Under the pieces are notes generated by a model. The model did no database searches, was not told the origin of the DNA, and saw only the letters and a list, made by a program, of their open reading frames with translations. Shown here piece after piece: positions 11,512 through 21,888 of a stretch of 64,000 nt of DNA (its first letter is position 1; each line of letters begins with the position of its first letter). A program made the position numbers and the translations under genes. This DNA comes from Pelagibacteraceae bacterium AG-426-E17 (lineage in GTDB: Bacteria; Pseudomonadota; Alphaproteobacteria; Pelagibacterales; Pelagibacteraceae): assembly GCA_003210095.1 (NCBI GenBank), contig QCNP01000003.1, positions 3,503 to 67,502 on the forward strand, in the 5' to 3' direction.

Positions 11512-12407
11512 TGGAAATATACATAAAGTTATTTGAGGTTATTTTCCCAGTTTTTTTTGTTATTGGCATTGGCTATTACTTAGGTAAAAAAAATCCAAAA
11601 TTTGACACTAATTTTATAACAAATTTTGCTGGAAATATTGGTACACCAGCTATGATTTTTTATACTGTTACAACAACTGGTATAACTTTGAATATTTTTA
11701 TTCATTACTTTGTATATGCTATTTTAATGATTGTGGGTTTTGCAGTTGTAGGTCTTATAATGCTTTTCCTACTTAAAAAAGATCTTAGTATGGAACTCCC
11801 ACCATTAATTCTTCCAAATACTGGTAATATGGGTGTTCCAATTTGCTTATTTGCTTATGGAACTCAAGGTCTAGGGGTGGCATCAGCCGTAGCTTCTGTA
11901 ATTATCTTATTTCATTTTACATTAGGTGTTTTTTTAGCAAAAAAGAATTTTTCTTTTGATATTCTTATTAAAAGCCCTCCTGTATACGCAATTATAGTAT
12001 CTGTTTTTTTTCTGTTTTTTGATATTAAAACTCCTTTGTTTCTTGAAAACACAACTTTTCTTCTTACTTACGCAACTATTTTTTTGGTATTGATGTCTTT
12101 AGGTATTGCGTTAACAAGGTTTAAATTTTCTTTTCGAGACTCAATTATATTTTCATTTTTAAGAGTTATAATAGGTCCAATTATAGGCTTTGCTGTAATT
12201 TATTATTTTGATCTTTCAGGATATCCTGCAGGAGTACTTTTGATACAAAGTGCTATGCCAAGTGCTATATTAAACTATTTAGTTGGTAGTATGTACTCGC
12301 CAAAAAAAATAGTAGATAGTATAGCTAGTACAATAGTTGTATCAACATTAATTTCTTTTATAACAATACCAATTATAGTTTACATAGCTCTCAAATATTT
12401 TTCATAA
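11511..12407 (+). CDS. AEC-family (auxin efflux carrier-like) permease
   Basis: Multi-TM protein; PNTGNMGVP and QSAMPSA motifs. Confidence 0.85.
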   Translation: MEIYIKLFEVIFPVFFVIGIGYYLGKKNPKFDTNFITNFAGNIGTPAMIFYTVTTTGITLNIFIHYFVYAILMIVGFAVVGLIMLFLLKKDLSMELPPLILPNTGNMGVPICLFAYGTQGLGVASAVASVIILFHFTLGVFLAKKNFSFDILIKSPPVYAIIVSVFFLFFDIKTPLFLENTTFLLTYATIFLVLMSLGIALTRFKFSFRDSIIFSFLRVIIGPIIGFAVIYYFDLSGYPAGVLLIQSAMPSAILNYLVGSMYSPKKIVDSIASTIVVSTLISFITIPIIVYIALKYFS

Positions 12408-13387
12408 TGAAAATTTGCTTTTTAGATAATGTAAATATTTCTTATACTTCTGAAGACATGTATTCAAATAAGGTTCGTGGAGCCGAAAATATTCTGATAA
12501 ATTTATCAAGAGAGTTCTGTAGATTAAATCACGACGTAACAATTTTTAATAATTGTAAAATAAATAATAAAATTGATAATGTTAATTGGATAAATTTAAA
12601 TAGTGTTAATGACAAACCTCATTTTGATTTAGCAATTTCCAATAATGATATCAAATTATTTGATAAAATAAGTGCCGCAAAAAAAATAGCAATATCTCAT
12701 AGCATTCAATCTATAGAAAAATTTGTTAGAAAAGGTCAACTGATTTCATATTTGAAACATAAACCAAAAATTGTTTTACTAGGAAAATATCATAAATCTA
12801 ATCGTAATATATTATTAAGATTATTTGGTTCATTTACAATTTCATGGGCTGTAGACGATATTTTTTTAAATTCTCAAATTCATAATCAAGTATTAAAAAA
12901 CCAAGCTATTTTTACCTCATATCCAGACAGAAATTTAAATTTATTAATCAATATTTGGAAAAACAAAATTTTTGCAAATAATAGGAATAAAAAACTATTA
13001 ATTACTCCTATTAAAGAAAATTATGAAAAATATAATATTTTTAATAGAGAATTTGGTAATAAATCAAAATTAATAGATGATATTTTAAATTCTAGAATTT
13101 ATTTAATTCCCGGTCATAAAGCAGAGTTATATTGTATTGCAGCTGAAGAAGCCAGAGAACTTTGCATTCCTATAATCACACTTGGTATCGGTAGTCTAAG
13201 TGAAAGAGTTCAACATTATAAAACAGGTTTTGTTGCAAAAAACTCTAATGAATTTGCTGATTATACAACAGCATTATTTAATGACCATAACCTATGGTTT
13301 GATATAAGAAAAAATCTTATTAAATTGAGAGGGTTAAAAAAATGGAAAAATACAGCTATTGAATTTTTAAATAATATAAATGATTAG
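12407..13387 (+). CDS. Glycosyltransferase (GT-B, GT4-like)
   Basis: RGAENILINL N-terminus; FTSYPDRNL; ELYCIAAEEA acceptor-loop-like motif. Confidence 0.75.
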   Translation: MKICFLDNVNISYTSEDMYSNKVRGAENILINLSREFCRLNHDVTIFNNCKINNKIDNVNWINLNSVNDKPHFDLAISNNDIKLFDKISAAKKIAISHSIQSIEKFVRKGQLISYLKHKPKIVLLGKYHKSNRNILLRLFGSFTISWAVDDIFLNSQIHNQVLKNQAIFTSYPDRNLNLLINIWKNKIFANNRNKKLLITPIKENYEKYNIFNREFGNKSKLIDDILNSRIYLIPGHKAELYCIAAEEARELCIPIITLGIGSLSERVQHYKTGFVAKNSNEFADYTTALFNDHNLWFDIRKNLIKLRGLKKWKNTAIEFLNNIND

Positions 13388-14135
13388 ATTTAATAAATTT
13401 TTTGAGAGAATATCTAGATTATTTAATATTATGATTTCAGATAATTATAAATTGAGTCATAAGTATCAAAATAAAAATCAAGTTACAAATACTAAAATTG
13501 TATTAAATTTACTTAAAAATAAAAACTTTAAACCAAAGATAATAGTTGATATTGGTTGTGGATATGGTCAATGGACCAAGGAAACTATAAAGTATTATCC
13601 TAACGCAAATTATTTTCTTTTTGACGCTGATATAAACAACCAACATAAGTTAGAGATTTTAAAAAAAAAATACAACAATTTACAATTTAAAATTTGTCTT
13701 TTATCTGATGATAACGCTAAGTATAAATTTTTTAACATGGGTTATGGATCATCTATTTTTGAAGAACAAACAAATCATAAAAGATTGATTCAAGAAATTA
13801 AGTCAACAACTTTAGTTCAAGAACTTCCATCTAGCATAAAAAATCAAACTAATAATCTTATTAAACTTGACGTGCAGGGCGCTGAACTTAAAGTGCTTGA
13901 TGGTTTAAAAGATTATATAAACTTTTTTGAAATTATTATTTTGGAAGTTTCTTTACATAATTACAATAAAGACGCTCCATTATTTGATAAAATTATGAGC
14001 TATATGTATAATAAAGACTATAAACTATATGATATATTTGACTTAAAAAGACTAGGTGAAGCTAATTCCGTTTTAATACAATTTGACTGTATGTTTGTTA
14101 AAAAAGATTCTGATTTATTTAATGTTAAATTTTAA
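13380..14135 (+). CDS. FkbM-family SAM-dependent methyltransferase
   Basis: VDIGCGYG motif I; LIKLDVQGAELKVLDG. Confidence 0.88.
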   Translation: MIRFNKFFERISRLFNIMISDNYKLSHKYQNKNQVTNTKIVLNLLKNKNFKPKIIVDIGCGYGQWTKETIKYYPNANYFLFDADINNQHKLEILKKKYNNLQFKICLLSDDNAKYKFFNMGYGSSIFEEQTNHKRLIQEIKSTTLVQELPSSIKNQTNNLIKLDVQGAELKVLDGLKDYINFFEIIILEVSLHNYNKDAPLFDKIMSYMYNKDYKLYDIFDLKRLGEANSVLIQFDCMFVKKDSDLFNVKF

Positions 14136-14166: not shown

Positions 14167-15120
14167 TCATATTTTAATATTTTTTAAAGCATTATTTTTG
14201 AAAATATTAGCTTCTCTTATATATCTTCTAACCATCTGACTTGTTTTGTGACCAGTCATTGCCATTATACTACGTTCATCAGCACCAGACTCTGCAGCGA
14301 CAGTTGCAAAACCTGATCTTAAACTATGACCTGCAAAATTTTTATTTTCTATACCTGCTAAATTTAAATATTCTTTCATTAATAAAACTACTGATTGATC
14401 AGTTAATCTTTTTTCAGTTAATGATAAACCTTTTGAAAATCTTCTAAAAATTGGTCCAGATTTAATTTTAGAAATTTCTAACCATTTTTTAAGATTAACA
14501 ATTGGACAATAATTTTCATTAGTGAAGTAGGGTAGTCCTTTAATCATCCCTTCACCAAATTGATCAGTTTTTGATCTTTTAATAGTGATTTTGAGACCCT
14601 CAGGTACAAATTCTAAATCTTCATGATCAATTGAAATTAGCTCAGTTCGTCTAAAACCTCCTCCAAAGCCCACTAAGATAATTGATTTGTCTCTATACTT
14701 CTTTATGTCTTCAATTTTTTGTTCATTTATTGTATTAATTATTGATTTTAAATGATTGATTAATATAGGTTTTTTACCTTTCTGAATGCTTCCTTTTACC
14801 CTTTTTATTCCCATTAAATTTTCAACAATAATTGGGTGTTTTGTATCTAAATAATGTCCTTTAAGTTTATGAACCATGCATATAGACACTAATCTTCTCC
14901 TTAAAGTACTGATTTTTGAATTTTTAGAAAGATGGGTTAGGTATAATGAGACTATTTTTGGCTCTGATGGCAGGGAATTTAAACCATGTTTAGCGCAAAA
15001 AGCTCCAAAATCTTTAAAGTCTGATTTATATGCTCTTAAAGTGTTATTTGCTTTTGAGCTTTTGAGATTATTTAGTGTTGCCTCGTAAAGCAATTTTAGG
15101 TCTGTTGTAAGTTCATTCAT
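14167..15120 (-). CDS. Cre-like tyrosine site-specific recombinase
   Basis: Intact catalytic set R (GFRRTEL), K (RSKTDQ), HxxR (HSLR), H (GHKT), Y (RRYI); SAM-like N-terminus (NTLRAYKSD); no obvious arm-binding domain. Confidence 0.92.
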   Translation of the reverse strand: MNELTTDLKLLYEATLNNLKSSKANNTLRAYKSDFKDFGAFCAKHGLNSLPSEPKIVSLYLTHLSKNSKISTLRRRLVSICMVHKLKGHYLDTKHPIIVENLMGIKRVKGSIQKGKKPILINHLKSIINTINEQKIEDIKKYRDKSIILVGFGGGFRRTELISIDHEDLEFVPEGLKITIKRSKTDQFGEGMIKGLPYFTNENYCPIVNLKKWLEISKIKSGPIFRRFSKGLSLTEKRLTDQSVVLLMKEYLNLAGIENKNFAGHSLRSGFATVAAESGADERSIMAMTGHKTSQMVRRYIREANIFKNNALKNIKI

Positions 15121-15122
15121 AT

Positions 15123-15159
15123 TATTACTATTGATAACAATTAATTATCAATACTAATA
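15123..15159. repeat. lox/dif-like inverted repeat, candidate recombination site
   Basis: TATTACTATTGATAA-CAATTAA-TTATCAATACTAATA: 15-bp arms with 14/15 pairs complementary, 7-nt asymmetric spacer, starting 3 nt upstream of the recombinase ATG. Confidence 0.65.
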
Positions 15160-15285
15160 TAGCATCAATTTATTTAAGTCAACAAGATAATTTAAAAAAA
15201 GTTATCAACATAATTCACAAAGCTTTAAATAAAACAATTAAAAAGTGATACATTAGACTCTTATAATTTGATATTAATTATTTAA

Positions 15286-15468
15286 TTAAGGGGCAACCCT
15301 TAACTGGCCGACTGGGGAAAGGCCGAGAGGACCAAGCCCAGGGGGCAGAAAGTCTTACGGAGTAGCGCTAAAATCGTAGGGCGGAAGGCATGGCGGTAGC
15401 GCATACAACGACGTGCCAAAACTACTGTTCTTTGCACCGTAAAAAGTGCAGAGAAACAGGGGTTTTTT
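15286..15468 (+). ncRNA. Putative structured non-coding RNA, family not identified
   Basis: About 59% GC over 15291-15420 (77/130 by hand count) in a very AT-rich genome; GNRA hairpin at the 5' end, two apparent pseudoknots, 3' hairpin plus T-tract; no plausible protein. Confidence 0.75.
15425..15468 (+). terminator. Intrinsic terminator-like hairpin ending the putative ncRNA
   Basis: CTGTT-CTTTGCAC-CGTAAAAA-GTGCAGAG-A-AACAG followed by GGGTTTTTT. Confidence 0.5.
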
Positions 15469-15472
15469 CTTC

Positions 15473-15742
15473 ATGAAAGGCACTAAATTTCAAATCAAAG
15501 TCTGGAAATATCTTAAAAAGATCCCTAAAGGAACAGTCAGAACATATAAAGATGTTGCAAAAGCTATAAATAAGCCAAAAGCAGCGCGGGCTGTAGCAAA
15601 TGCCTGCGCTAAAAACCCATATGCTCCAAAAATACCTTGTCATAGAGTAATTAGGTCTGATGGAGGCCTTGGTGGCTATTCTGGCAGAGGTGGGGCAAAA
15701 AAAAAAGTAAGCTTATTGAGGTCTGAAAAAGTTCAAATTTAA
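15473..15742 (+). CDS. ogt: Methylated-DNA--protein-cysteine methyltransferase, minimal single-domain form (89 aa)
   Basis: FQIKVW..L..IPKG...TY, PCHRVI active site. ATG 15473 lies after the terminator hairpin, so it is preferred to the track start. Confidence 0.9.
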   Translation: MKGTKFQIKVWKYLKKIPKGTVRTYKDVAKAINKPKAARAVANACAKNPYAPKIPCHRVIRSDGGLGGYSGRGGAKKKVSLLRSEKVQI

Positions 15743-16169: not shown

Positions 16170-17024
16170 CTATATTTTAATTTTCTTAACAATATTCTCT
16201 CTTCTAGAGATATATATTCCACTAAAAACTATGATAAACAAGCCTAAAAAAGTCCAACTATCTGGAAAATCACCAAAGAAATAATAAGCAATAATGATAT
16301 TAGTTACGATCTCAAAATAACTAAATGGTGCTAATTTGGATGCATCAGCAAATTTCAAAGATAAAATAATAAAAAGATGACCTATGCAAGCTAATAAACC
16401 GATAGCTGTCATTATAGACCATTGATTAAAAGTTGGAGAAACCCAAACAAAAGGCATGAATGTTGTAGAGATAATGGCCCCTACTACACCTGTAAATAAT
16501 AAAGTTAACAATGGGTTATCTGAAGTACTAAGCCTACGAGTAATTATTAAATAAAAACCATACATAATACCAGTTCCAAGTGCTGCTAAACTTGCTAGAT
16601 TTATTTCTACAAAACCTGGTTTAATGACAACTAGAGATCCTATAAAACCAATAATTACTGCTGTCCATCTTCTGTAGCCTACAGACTCACCCAAGAAAAT
16701 AGGAGAAAAAGAAGTTACAACCAGTGGAGCCACAAATGCAAGTGTTAATGCCTTAGGAAGTGAAATAACTGAAATTGAGTAAAAAAAACTTATGTTCGCA
16801 GTTAATAAAATCAAACCTCTGATTAATTGTAATTTTGGTTTGTCAGTCCAAACTAAATACTTTTTAAAGAAAAAAAACATTAAAGGAAAGGTAAATACAA
16901 CAGTGAAAAAATATCTAGCCCAAGTTATTTGAAGAACTGGAAGATCTGAGCTTAAATATTTAGCAAATCCATCCATTATAGGCAATATAACCCAAGCTAA
17001 AAGATTATAAATTATCGCTTTCAT
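16170..17024 (-). CDS. DMT/EamA-family transporter
   Basis: About 10 TM in two EamA repeats; LAPFSYFEIV, GDFPD. Confidence 0.88.
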   Translation of the reverse strand: MKAIIYNLLAWVILPIMDGFAKYLSSDLPVLQITWARYFFTVVFTFPLMFFFFKKYLVWTDKPKLQLIRGLILLTANISFFYSISVISLPKALTLAFVAPLVVTSFSPIFLGESVGYRRWTAVIIGFIGSLVVIKPGFVEINLASLAALGTGIMYGFYLIITRRLSTSDNPLLTLLFTGVVGAIISTTFMPFVWVSPTFNQWSIMTAIGLLACIGHLFIILSLKFADASKLAPFSYFEIVTNIIIAYYFFGDFPDSWTFLGLFIIVFSGIYISRRENIVKKIKI

Positions 17025-17065
17025 AAAACATAAATTTAGAAAGAAAAATATACTACATACATAAC

Positions 17066-17947
17066 TTATGCTTTTTTATCAAAATAAGAATAAATATATT
17101 TCAAATAAAAATAATATAATTTACAGATAACAAAATCTATAAGAAAACTTAATGTATAATTTGGTTTTATAGGAAGTTCGCCTATATATTTTGTGTTAGA
17201 TTTTAGAAAATATTTCTTAAAAAATTTATAAGAAATGCCCCATTTTAATAAAAAGATTTTAGATCCTTTTGTACCAGACCAGATTTTATTCTTATCATTT
17301 TTTTCAGACTTACGAGTCACAACAGAACCAAAATGGTATACTTTAAAATCATTAATACCTTTAAAAATTCTTACACCTTTTTTCCAGAGCTTCATATTCA
17401 AATCTGGATCTGAAGCTGCTCCTGGCCAAAATTCTAAACTAAAACCACCTATATCGTTCCATAATTTTTTATGAATTACATGTGGTGCCCAAGTAGATCC
17501 TTGAAAATCGTAAAAATTATATTTTTTGTAATTTGTTAGAAATTTTTCTTCATTAAAATCTAGGTATGTTTGTCCACAATCAAAAGATATTTGTCCGTTA
17601 TTTATCATTGTCCCAGATAAATAAAATCTATCATGGCCAATAGAGTAAATTTCATTTTTAAGTATTACATCCCAATTCGGACAAAAATAAAAATCATCAT
17701 GGGCATATAAAATATAATCCATTTTACTTTTTTTTGCTGCAGTATTGACACCTTCACAAATACCAGCGTTATAATCAGTAAATGTATAGTTTATCTTTTT
17801 TTGTTTTAAATAATCAGTAGTACCATCATTACCTATACTCACATGAACTAAAATCTCATTATTTAAAGAAGAATTTTTACTCAAACTATCCAAACATAAT
17901 TTTAAATAATTTATATTATTTAATGTGGGAATAATAATTGAAAACAT
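17066..17947 (-). CDS. Glycosyltransferase family 2
   Basis: FSIIIPTLN start, HDD motif, IGGFS.EF, SDPDLNMKLW. Confidence 0.88.
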   Translation of the reverse strand: MFSIIIPTLNNINYLKLCLDSLSKNSSLNNEILVHVSIGNDGTTDYLKQKKINYTFTDYNAGICEGVNTAAKKSKMDYILYAHDDFYFCPNWDVILKNEIYSIGHDRFYLSGTMINNGQISFDCGQTYLDFNEEKFLTNYKKYNFYDFQGSTWAPHVIHKKLWNDIGGFSLEFWPGAASDPDLNMKLWKKGVRIFKGINDFKVYHFGSVVTRKSEKNDKNKIWSGTKGSKIFLLKWGISYKFFKKYFLKSNTKYIGELPIKPNYTLSFLIDFVICKLYYFYLKYIYSYFDKKA

Positions 17948-20059
17948 TTAAGACCAAATGACCTGTTTTTTTAATTTAAAATCAAATGATTTGGACAAAA
18001 TATATTCTGATACTATGTCAGAATTAAAATATTTAAGATATTTTATTTTTCCTTGTCGTGCTATTTGCTTCCCCTTTTTTTTATCTTTTTTATATTTATT
18101 TAGTTTATAACTTAGATCAGATAAATTTTTGTAAAAAATAAGTTCATCACTTGTAAAAAAATCACTCAAATAGGTGTTTTTATCAATAAATGTTAAAAGT
18201 CCATTACCAACTAATTGAACTATACGATCACTGCTGTAATATTTTATTGGTTTGCCTCTACTTAAATTTAAACCCATATAAGAATTTGAAATTTTTTTAA
18301 TAAATTGATCTGCCCATATTGGTTGAACATTATTCATTCCATAAACATCAAACTTTATATTTTTATTAAGTTTTATAAGTTTATTAATAAAGTTTTCTCT
18401 ATCATCACCTTTTCCACTTTTTAATTGACCTCTATGAACACCATGGCTCATTGCAAAAAAAACATCATAAGCGCAATTTTTGTTATAATTATTAAGAACC
18501 TCAAATGATTTATCTGCAGGATTTGGCATAAAAAATGAATTTGGTATTTTAATCTGTAGTGCTGAAGGATCAGTGGTTAAAAAAGTATTATCTAGTAATT
18601 TAACTTTATCTAATATTCTTCTAGTATTATTTTCATGGTCAGGTCCATACTTTGATAAAGGATCTAAAAACCATTGAGAAAACTTTGTTGAAGAATTGAT
18701 CTCCTTCATGATCTGCAATGTGTCATTTTTAACTCTGTCAGCGTGTCCTAAAATAACAATATCTGGTTTAAAATTTTTAAAAGTATCAACAATTTTTTTT
18801 TGTAAAGTAATTCTTCCAGACATATCTTTTATACTTTTATTATTGTGGATTATATCTCTATCACTAATTGATAAAACGTTATGGCCATTTCTTATAAAAC
18901 CATTATTTAATCTTCTACCTGTATTATAATGTAATCTTCCATCAAATCTTTCGTTAAAATTTGTAATATGCATTATCTTAAAAGATCTTTCTTTTTTTAT
19001 TATTAATGTATTATTAACAATAAATGCACTCCTAATTTTATCAATAATATTAGAAATATAATTATGGTCAAATTTAAAATTTTTATAATTTAAAATTTGA
19101 AATTTTTTTAATTTATTATGATTCAAAATTAAATCTTCAATATGTTCATAAAGATCATTTGTGTTTAAGGATTTAAGGATGATAGCATTTTTTGCAGTTT
19201 CAGGTAGACCTCCCCTATTACTTATAATTACTGCACATCCTCTACTAGCAGCCTCTAAACTAGTTCTACCAAAAGGCTCTTCCCATCTAGAGCATACTAC
19301 TGATATACTAACTTTATTTAATATATTTAGCACATCTTCGTGTTTAGTATAACCTCTAACATTTAAATTTTTATGTTCAAAATTTAATTTTTCTCGAGGC
19401 TCTTCTCCTATTACAATACCTTTCCAGTCACTATGTTTATTTAAAATTTTAATTATAGTTTTTCCAAAAATATCATATCCTTTAGCACTGTTTAGTTTTC
19501 CAATAAAAGAAATCAACTTTTTTTTATTTTTAAAATTGATTTTGACTCTGCCGGTTGACTGATAACAAATTGATGTTTTTTGTTTCAGTAAATTTTTGTT
19601 ATCTATACCAATAAAAAATCTTTCCTGAGACCATTCACTATTAAACAATATTTTATCAATTTTATTTAATAGATAAATTCTATCATTAGTAGATTTAGAG
19701 CCATTCATAGAGAGAGGATCGTTGTGAAAATATAAAATCAATTTTTTATTTTGTATTTTTTCCAAGTATTTTATGTAATTAGGTCTATTATGTATTTCTA
19801 TAATATCTGAATTTATATTTTTTTCTTTTTTTAAAAAATTAGCAACATAGTTTTTACTATTGCTTTGAATCAAAGATTTTTTTAATTCTATGTTAATGTA
19901 ATTTTTTAAAAAGGGTTTTTGTTTTTGCATATTACCGAAAACATAGGAGTTTTCAAAAAATTTACTATTTTCTATAGTATGTTTAACAAATAGAGATACT
20001 GCACCAGCATTATTTGGAGAAAAATTTTCTTTATAAGGCAGTAAAACTGATATTTTCAT
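17948..20059 (-). CDS. Two-domain glycosyltransferase (GT4 domain plus a second GT-B/CgeB-like domain)
   Basis: EEPFGRTSLEAASRG in the N-terminal half; LNLSRG...YSSDRIVQLVGNG in the C-terminal half. Confidence 0.8.
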   Translation of the reverse strand: MKISVLLPYKENFSPNNAGAVSLFVKHTIENSKFFENSYVFGNMQKQKPFLKNYINIELKKSLIQSNSKNYVANFLKKEKNINSDIIEIHNRPNYIKYLEKIQNKKLILYFHNDPLSMNGSKSTNDRIYLLNKIDKILFNSEWSQERFFIGIDNKNLLKQKTSICYQSTGRVKINFKNKKKLISFIGKLNSAKGYDIFGKTIIKILNKHSDWKGIVIGEEPREKLNFEHKNLNVRGYTKHEDVLNILNKVSISVVCSRWEEPFGRTSLEAASRGCAVIISNRGGLPETAKNAIILKSLNTNDLYEHIEDLILNHNKLKKFQILNYKNFKFDHNYISNIIDKIRSAFIVNNTLIIKKERSFKIMHITNFNERFDGRLHYNTGRRLNNGFIRNGHNVLSISDRDIIHNNKSIKDMSGRITLQKKIVDTFKNFKPDIVILGHADRVKNDTLQIMKEINSSTKFSQWFLDPLSKYGPDHENNTRRILDKVKLLDNTFLTTDPSALQIKIPNSFFMPNPADKSFEVLNNYNKNCAYDVFFAMSHGVHRGQLKSGKGDDRENFINKLIKLNKNIKFDVYGMNNVQPIWADQFIKKISNSYMGLNLSRGKPIKYYSSDRIVQLVGNGLLTFIDKNTYLSDFFTSDELIFYKNLSDLSYKLNKYKKDKKKGKQIARQGKIKYLKYFNSDIVSEYILSKSFDFKLKKQVIWS

Positions 20060-20320: not shown

Positions 20321-20356
20321 TGGCGGTCCCTAGGGGAATCGAACCCCTCTTTCATG
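20321..20356 (-). repeat. 36-bp copy of the tRNA-Glu 3' end (att site)
   Basis: TGGCGGTCCCTAGGGGAATCGAACCCCTCTTTCATG is identical to 21814-21849. Confidence 0.95.
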
Positions 20357-21813: not shown

Positions 21814-21888
21814 TGGCGGTCCCTAGGGGAATCGAACCCCTCTTTCATGGATGAAAACCATGTGTCCTAACCGATAGACGAAGGGACC
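21814..21888 (-). tRNA. tRNA-Glu (TTC)
   Basis: GGTCCCT...AGGGACC-GCCA acceptor; CATGG-TTTTCAT-CCATG anticodon arm; GGTTCGATTCC T-arm. Confidence 0.97.

Follow-up and report, generated by a model that had tools for sequence, protein, structure and literature searches.

A Cre-like recombinase and its palindromic site probably form a chromosome dimer resolution module of SAR11 bacteria

Resolving chromosome dimers is a housekeeping task that is near-universal, and just three solutions with one recombinase (XerS, XerH and XerA) have been described for it. The SAR11 bacteria, the most abundant in the ocean, combine very high recombination rates with a minimal genome. By what system, then, are their chromosome dimers resolved? 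The question is raised by a locus in a 64,000-nucleotide (nt) stretch of DNA from the SAR11 bacterium Pelagibacteraceae bacterium AG-426-E17 (contig QCNP01000003.1, positions 3,503 to 67,502 of the forward strand; the whole stretch is hereafter termed the window), where a gene for a Cre-like tyrosine recombinase is directly preceded by a palindromic, dif-like site. An earlier note on this DNA had proposed that the lineage resolves dimers with a domesticated Cre-like enzyme acting on a symmetric site, and had remarked that no such system was known to be described for SAR11. Full-text literature searches likewise turned up no published description of the SAR11 site or system: a 2009 survey reports P. 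ubique to be without a dif/Xer system (Carnoy and Roten, 2009; PMC2731167), Pelagibacter is not listed in the text or accessible supplements of Kono et al. (2011), a 2017 review of single-recombinase systems covers XerS, XerH and XerA only (PMC5357621), and a 2026 preprint calls Pelagibacterales recombinases XerC/XerD, names that come from automated annotation. The 2009 statement left SAR11 dimer handling open, and the module described here would be a concrete, testable answer. Computational checks on the palindrome at orthologous genes, on XerC/XerD and on the chromosome terminus all came out in favor of the proposal, and we consider it very likely that gene and site form a stand-alone unit for resolving chromosome dimers, one that takes the place of XerC/XerD-dif in a SAR11 family which we take to include HTCC1062, HTCC7211 and HIMB5. 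The function would be a known one, whereas the recombinase lineage is a different one and the site is new.

The recombinase gene is an intact open reading frame whose ATG is the reverse complement of 15118-15120 (Table 1). Its product of 317 amino acids (aa) matches Pfam Phage_integrase (PF00589; 4.5e-19) and carries the N-terminal SAM-like domain SAM_1 (PF02899). The catalytic R-K-H-R-H/W-Y set by which the tyrosine recombinase superfamily is recognized lies within the Phage_integrase domain, and its members R158, K184, H265, R268, H291 and Y300 are unchanged in 16/16 diverse orthologues (alignment, 53-93% identity). The protein falls far below the NCBIfam cut-offs for XerC (TIGR02224; 59.8 bits, cut-off 335), XerD (TIGR02225; 69 bits, cut-off 330) and XerS (NF003462; 40.9 bits over the C-terminal half only, cut-off 267). 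When the alignment of the 16 orthologues was used as a profile, Cre was the best solved relative (5.8e-13), with both domains aligned along its full length (profile positions 23-291 paired with Cre residues 37-327), whereas XerA and XerD were matched in the catalytic domain only and XerH more weakly than Cre (1.5e-7). The fold points the same way: for an AlphaFold model with a predicted local distance difference test (pLDDT) score of 76, the top 31 Foldseek matches in the PDB were all Cre or the Cre-derived Tre, with E-values down to 6.6e-12 and template modeling (TM) scores of 0.62-0.70, compared to ~0.54 for XerH and ~0.45 for XerA. Both domains are thus closer to Cre than to other solved recombinases, and the protein is also shorter than the ~355-360 aa of XerH. 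At ~17% identity to Cre and a pLDDT of 76, 'Cre-like' seems a fair class label, denoting class resemblance and not orthology. The earlier description of the protein as an intact, Cre-like tyrosine recombinase unlike XerC/XerD is therefore borne out by invariant catalytic residues, profile and fold.

Close homologues are annotated 'integrase' in Candidatus Pelagibacter sp., and the single copy in HTCC1062 very probably corresponds to SAR11_1019, which is annotated xerD. This gene is induced along with recA, in light and under sulfur limitation (PMC3090418, PMC5069961), which fits a role downstream of homologous recombination.

On the forward strand the site reads TATTACTATTGATAA-CAATTAA-TTATCAATACTAATA, with 14/15 arm positions paired, and on the gene strand TATTAGTATTGATAA-TTAATTG-TTATCAATAGTAATA; the invariant core GATAA-N7-TTATC occupies 15133-15149. 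The earlier note had given the 15-7-15 repeat, its sequence and its pairing correctly but had placed it 3 nt from the ATG, while the gap between the proximal arm and the ATG is actually 2 nt. Several properties expected of dif-type sites (Carnoy and Roten, 2009; PMC2731167) are found here: the site is non-coding, lying between the recombinase ATG and the next gene, it is palindromic and low in G+C (6 G/C among 37 nt), and by cumulative guanine-cytosine (GC) skew it is close to the terminus (0.9 and 1.8 kb in two closed genomes, see below). The conserved XerD-binding arm of the TTATGTTAA type is absent; the corresponding arm is TTATCAATAGTAAT or TTATCGGAAA, sharing the inner TTAT only. No second match to the full 37-mer was found in the 1.15-Mb window genome (99.3% complete), even at 8 mismatches.

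The palindrome is a constant companion of the gene. In 47/47 orthologous loci, from at least six genera and with 51-100% protein identity, the site stands 0-17 nt ahead of the start codon, its core GATAA-TTAATKG-TTATC is essentially invariant, and the center keeps one orientation relative to the gene. Outside the core, two arm versions were observed, type A (ATTACTAAYGATAA...TTATCAATAGTAAT), which goes with proteins of ~317-318 aa, and type B (TTTCCGATAA...TTATCGGAAA), which goes with proteins of 304-308 aa that are without a 12-residue insertion. The change between A and B is mirrored on both arms, as expected if one protein binds each arm, and the two types split at a single branch of the protein tree (support 97/95; none of 500 label shuffles gave as low a value). 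Were recombinase and site to act as proposed, nature would have supplied a compact pair whose two specificities arose by co-evolution, and hence a possible source of tools. In the tree of 46 orthologues the genus labels are interleaved; for example, recombinases of one other genus (g8) are 78-82% identical to the window protein, and some from the window's own genus only 58-68%. This mixing of genera suggests that gene and site have been exchanged between SAR11 lineages as a block.

Beyond these loci, a degenerate core pattern was found in 345/401 family genomes, almost always once, compared to 7 matches for the reversed control. Five genomes have a double core, and the possibility that these are lysogens with two sites was rejected for the three that were inspected. 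The double in G233 stems from overlapping assembly, and in G112 and G197 the additional core is an arm-less chance match.

A palindrome between promoter and start codon could also be a transcriptional operator and nothing else, serving autorepression or another regulator, with the recombinase either acting on a different target or being the fixed relic of an ancient element. The position of the site agrees with this, as it overlaps the promoter-to-ATG interval in every genome, where palindromes are typical of operators. The -10 candidate, TATATT/TATTAG, covers 15154-15161 and thereby runs into the outer end of the distal arm, which would place the start of transcription within the site. In an alignment of 26 upstream regions, TTGAC of the -35 hexamer hardly varies (≥90%), and it is seen in 47/47 loci, the conserved hexamer reading TTGACA. 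An operator alone, however, would leave unexplained why the site lies at the GC-skew maximum, why the same palindrome stands 100-220 base pairs (bp) from the gene on plasmids, why copies occur upstream of terL in phages that are without the gene, and why the asymmetric 7-nt center, typical of crossover regions, is conserved. No second candidate target was found in the genome, and in a lineage as streamlined as this one, a relic would not have kept every catalytic residue in six or more genera. We therefore regard the operator-only explanation as quite improbable.

If the module has taken over dimer resolution, the canonical pair should be missing from the same lineage. A single tyrosine recombinase was detected in the whole window genome (PF00589 and the XerD model, E≤10), and the recombinase gene is present in 20/21 high-quality genomes of the genus. 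At the level of the order, 151 high-quality genomes were surveyed, 138 from the window's family and 13 from a sister family. The family genomes typically yield a single match of ~70-80 bits, which is the recombinase studied here; 30/138 hold extra phage-type integrases, and no Phage_integrase match above 94 bits was found in any of the 138. In the sister family, by contrast, matches score 133-162 bits, with two in each of 12 genomes and one in the remaining genome (G046). Against the NCBIfam XerC and XerD models, two sister-family proteins taken as representatives reach 314 bits each, and the sister-family genes are placed in housekeeping contexts. Since the sister family keeps XerC/XerD and the window's family is without them, the sequence comparison indicates a loss of the canonical pair in the lineage with the Cre-like recombinase.

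The location of the module is that of a dif site. In a closed genome of 1,343,202 bp the cumulative GC skew has its maximum at 615,774 and its minimum at 1,290,841 (replichores of 50.3% and 49.7%; dnaA is 92 kb from the minimum), and the recombinase gene lies at 616,646-617,599 with the site core at 617,610-617,626, 1.8 kb from the maximum. In a closed genome of 1,059,009 bp from another genus, which has a type-B site, the skew maximum (427,063) and the core (426,163-426,179) are 0.9 kb apart. The skew of the window's own 69.6-kb contig peaks ~1 kb from the site, and the large contig of the same genome holds the skew minimum and no internal maximum. Across 30 closed genomes the gene is found at 40-49% of the chromosome from dnaA (mean 44.5%). 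The module would therefore also be a precise terminus marker for more than 1,000 SAR11 genomes.

These features fit a simple scheme. A RecA-dependent crossover between sister chromosomes would yield a dimer with two sites in direct repeat. Two recombinase monomers would occupy the symmetric arms of each site, and two occupied sites would form a tetrameric synapse in which Tyr300, together with the R-K-H-R-H residues, would cleave and exchange strands across the 7-bp center, giving a Holliday junction and then two monomers. The asymmetric TTAATKG center, conserved in orientation, would provide polarity, such that direct repeats are deleted and not inverted. An FtsK with a gamma domain (99 bits) is encoded, and the position at the terminus would let it bring both sites together at the septum. 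With the promoter hexamers on one side of the site and the start codon on the other, bound recombinase would cover its own promoter and leader and probably repress its own gene. We infer binding, cleavage chemistry, FtsK dependence and autoregulation from these sequence features.

Several points weigh against this interpretation. Binding and recombination at the site are deduced from sequence and not from experiment; the 7-bp central region is assumed from symmetry. Seven of the 138 high-quality family genomes have no recombinase match, and 56/401 family genomes are without an exact core; most of these are draft assemblies, and real loss is possible. Gene orientation changes over at the same place as the GC skew, so the two signals are not independent, though both mark the terminus. 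A naive 6-8-mer strand-skew search in one closed genome found no strongly polarized word resembling the FtsK orienting polar sequences (KOPS) that converges on the site: the best words were GAGTAGG (54:8) and GGGNAGGG (9:2, too rare to judge), and none exceeded 87% skew. FtsK guidance of the site is thus unsupported, a naive search of this kind deciding neither way. The -10 hexamer is non-canonical, its spacing from the -35 hexamer is 15-17 nt, and a consensus scan that requires 16-18 nt did not pick up this pair, which makes the promoter assignment tentative. Finally, the locus borders strain-variable DNA, which would also fit a role in DNA acquisition.

How does the module compare to known systems? 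It has what is common to single-recombinase modules, namely one recombinase, an adjacent site, one site per chromosome and no second Xer protein. Like XerS/difSL of streptococci and lactococci, it consists of one recombinase with the site beside its gene, placed at the terminus of an FtsK-bearing host, and the left arm of difSL, TTTCCGAAAA (PMC5357621), is one position off the type-B arm TTTCCGATAA. XerS, however, is ~356 aa long, its site has unequal arms and an 11-bp center, as opposed to the equal arms of 10-15 bp and 7-bp center of the SAR11 site, and it belongs to a different phylum. XerH/difH of Helicobacter and Campylobacter likewise combines a single recombinase with a palindromic site near the gene and the terminus, and the difH arms of Nitratiruptor and Wolinella, TTAGTATTGAAAAC, resemble the window arm TTAGTATTGATAA; XerH, at 354-362 aa, is nonetheless a weaker relative than Cre in both profile and fold. 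XerC/XerD-dif shares the proposed job, the chromosomal place and the inner arm ends ATAA...TTAT, but employs two paralogous enzymes on an asymmetric 11-6-11 site where SAR11 has one enzyme and symmetric arms.

The closest system by profile and fold is Cre/loxP of phage P1, which also has a symmetric arms-spacer-arms site beside the gene and, like the SAR11 module, no evident accessory sites. The loxP layout is 13-8-13, and P1 Cre resides on a plasmid prophage, whereas the SAR11 module is chromosomal, vertically conserved and at the terminus. ResD/rfsF of F, a plasmid multimer-resolution system, is grouped here with Cre/loxP. Leslie and Sherratt reportedly showed in 1995 that in E. coli Cre/loxP can stand in for XerCD/dif when placed at the position of dif; in SAR11, nature would have made the same exchange.

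The site also occurs outside the chromosome. A 17-mer core was found in 33 IMG/VR contigs, none of them encoding the recombinase, and in 16 for the reversed control; the core alone is thus about two-fold enriched in viral contigs, with about half of the matches at chance level. The palindrome is extended by 3-6 bp in 13 of the 33 real core matches and in none of the controls. The decisive scan for viral contigs is the arm-based one, in which the type-B pattern TTCCGATAA-N7-TTATCGGAA was found in at least 114 viral contigs compared to 2 for its reversal. Among 117 viral contigs with an arm-based site that were examined, 15 encode their own homologous recombinase 86-714 bp from the site and are mostly high-GC elements of other hosts. 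In the other 102 the fetched stretch shows no homologue of the recombinase; 69 of these contigs are at ≤37% GC. A pelagiphage-type terL is present in 65 of the 102, and in 61 of these 65 the site stands 214-581 bp upstream of it. The viral central regions (TTAAACG, TTAAATG, TTAATTG and TTAATCG, or TTAAWNG) are like that of the host but variable.

Representative viral contigs match cultured HTVC010P-type phages and HTVC106P. The cultured phages HTVC100P, HTVC035P and HTVC106P have variant sites, two of the three with tandem type-A-like and type-B-like copies. The small viral contigs were considered as Microviridae and rejected as such: genes for portal, terminase and head-tail adaptor proteins are present, and cultured pelagiphages are what the contigs match. 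Cultured phages have no close homologue of the recombinase, the best being 26-28% identical, and on this basis the gene was rejected as a pelagiphage integrase. The paper on these pelagiphages describes only tRNA attachment sites with phage-encoded integrases and mentions neither Xer nor dif (PMC8477408).

A site kept in phages that do not have the gene cannot serve there as the promoter or operator of the recombinase, and its maintenance away from the gene argues for a trans-acting host protein that recognizes it. The sequence pattern therefore suggests that the phages use the host recombinase. One specific form of this idea, to which we give somewhat less than an even chance, is that a large group of SAR11 podoviruses, those of the HTVC010P type and the HTVC106P-like ones, which have the fixed site upstream of terL and no recombinase near it, depend on the host Cre-like enzyme, either for cyclizing or monomerizing their genomes or for entering the chromosome at the terminus. 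P1 uses its own Cre/lox to such ends, whereas pelagiphages so dependent would borrow the enzyme from the host. They would resemble the Xer-exploiting elements CTXphi, VGJphi and the gokushovirus prophages at dif, which have a copy of the host site with a similar, non-identical center and no recombinase of their own. The pelagiphage carriers differ from these in being tailed and podovirus-type, in the fixed position of the site and in that no integrated phage copy at the site was found; no hybrid phage-host contig was seen among the 117 viral contigs. If true, the dependence would be a previously unseen link in the ocean's most abundant virus-host pair and would mean that recombination is a hidden stage in phages now regarded as strictly lytic. 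The site also offers an unexpected handle on pelagiphage biology.

The viral copies bear on another question, whether recombinase and site chiefly provide foreign DNA with a landing pad, attB- or integron-like, that feeds the adjacent strain-variable region and admits pelagiphages, with dimer resolution absent or secondary. The more than 100 recombinase-free viral contigs with a matching site and similar center would be expected on such a pad, and so would a flank downstream of the gene that differs between genomes, a distance from the site to the conserved ogt-like neighbor that ranges from ~230 to 1,230 nt, and an IMES-2 RNA present in some genomes only. No genome among the 401, however, has two genuine sites flanking an insert, with three of the five doubles inspected, and the window's contig has no clear excess of arm-like half-sites over the remainder of the genome. 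A housekeeping role predicts universal conservation, a position exactly at the terminus and the loss of XerCD, and in known systems integration at dif parasitizes dimer resolution rather than replacing it. A landing pad as the main function is thus unlikely, and admitting foreign DNA may be a secondary role of the locus.

The earlier note had seen no prophage or island genes around the module. This holds for phage genes, but strain-variable glycosyltransferase and methyltransferase genes flank the locus and a small tRNA-Glu islet lies 5 kb off. Sequence 3' of the recombinase gene varies widely among close relatives. The flanking glycan genes, this divergence and the lower GC of the window's contig (26.7% vs 28.9%) therefore place a strain-variable envelope-glycan region against the terminus. 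Glycosyltransferase and methyltransferase genes on both sides, together with a weak NCBIfam match of the recombinase to tyrosine-type invertases (E 3.7e-4), might indicate a DNA inversion or excision switch for neighboring surface-glycan genes. Such a switch requires two sites where one per genome is found, and the neighbors vary between strains while the module stays constant, which makes it the least credible of the explanations considered here.

Where did the dimer resolution module come from? Outside the family, a homologue is present in 14/298 alphaproteobacterial genomes, at 113-235 bits, where family members exceed 500; these homologues are patchily distributed, and stop codons interrupt two of them. 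In two of three such loci, CCTCCGATAA-TTACCGC-TTATCGGAGG or CTCTGATAA-CACCCAC-TTATCGGAG stands directly ahead of the gene. In PLSDB, 1,433 plasmids from many phyla have a recombinase homologue, usually one per plasmid and up to 43% identical, and in four of five that were inspected a GATAA-N6-8-TTATC palindrome with 11-16-bp arms lies 100-220 bp upstream of the gene, as in a Skermanella plasmid (TAACTTCCGATAA-CGCCCCCT-TTATCGGAAGTTA). In an Iodobacter plasmid parA is found just downstream of the recombinase homologue. The fifth plasmid, from Alicyclobacillus, has only an arm-less core ~880 bp upstream, with an AbrB/PIN toxin-antitoxin pair upstream of the gene. By these features the plasmid 'site-specific integrase' family looks like a general plasmid multimer-resolution module; we know of no name for this family of integrase plus palindrome. 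The SAR11 module has the look of one of these units that became fixed where the chromosome terminates. Its probable ancestor is a multimer-resolution unit of a plasmid or phage in which the site already lay upstream of the gene. The word 'domesticated' in the earlier note thus gains support from plasmid relatives with the same gene-plus-site arrangement, and SAR11 would offer an example of a mobile-element maintenance module turned core chromosomal function.

Table 1. Coordinates of the features discussed (window positions unless an accession or locus is given)
Feature	Position	Strand	Basis
Cre-like tyrosine recombinase gene, 317 aa	14167..15120	-	Open reading frame and translation; Pfam PF00589 and PF02899
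dif-like site, 15-7-15 inverted repeat with asymmetric 7-nt center	15123..15159	.	Sequence, conservation
Putative recombinase promoter	15156..15182	-	-35 TTGACT, reverse complement of 15177-15182
Glycosyltransferase, FkbM-type methyltransferase and EamA transporter genes flanking the module	12407-14135 and 16170-20059		
IMES-2 structured RNA, GC-rich	15279-15419	+	Rfam RF02035, 158 bits; 120 nt from site
98-aa alkyltransferase-like (ogt-like) protein	15446-15742	+	PF01035, 1.8e-33; O6-methylguanine methyltransferase DNA-binding domain only
Sites in cultured pelagiphages	MW273924.1 34316-34351; MW273923.1 35828-35860; MN698244.1 35411-35437		
Viral contigs with site	IMG/VR loci L164-L193 and L281-L388		
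Plasmid examples	NZ_CP067423.1, NZ_CP025783.1, NZ_LN879503.1, NZ_CP110140.1 (loci L224-L227)		

Among the remaining features, the IMES-2 motif belongs to a type of RNA described from marine metagenomes and metatranscriptomes. It was rejected as a part of the module: it adjoins the site in the window genome and in two others (G034 and G095), but two genomes of another genus have it at a different place and 18/24 genomes tested do not have it at all, which makes it an accessory neighbor. The ogt-like gene is a conserved neighbor on the site side in several genera, and its varying distance to the site suggests small insertions there. Further along the window, no integrase was found inside a stretch of ~1.5 kb that is bracketed by an exact 36-bp repeat of the tRNA-Glu 3' end, the two copies lying at 20321-20356 and 21814-21849.

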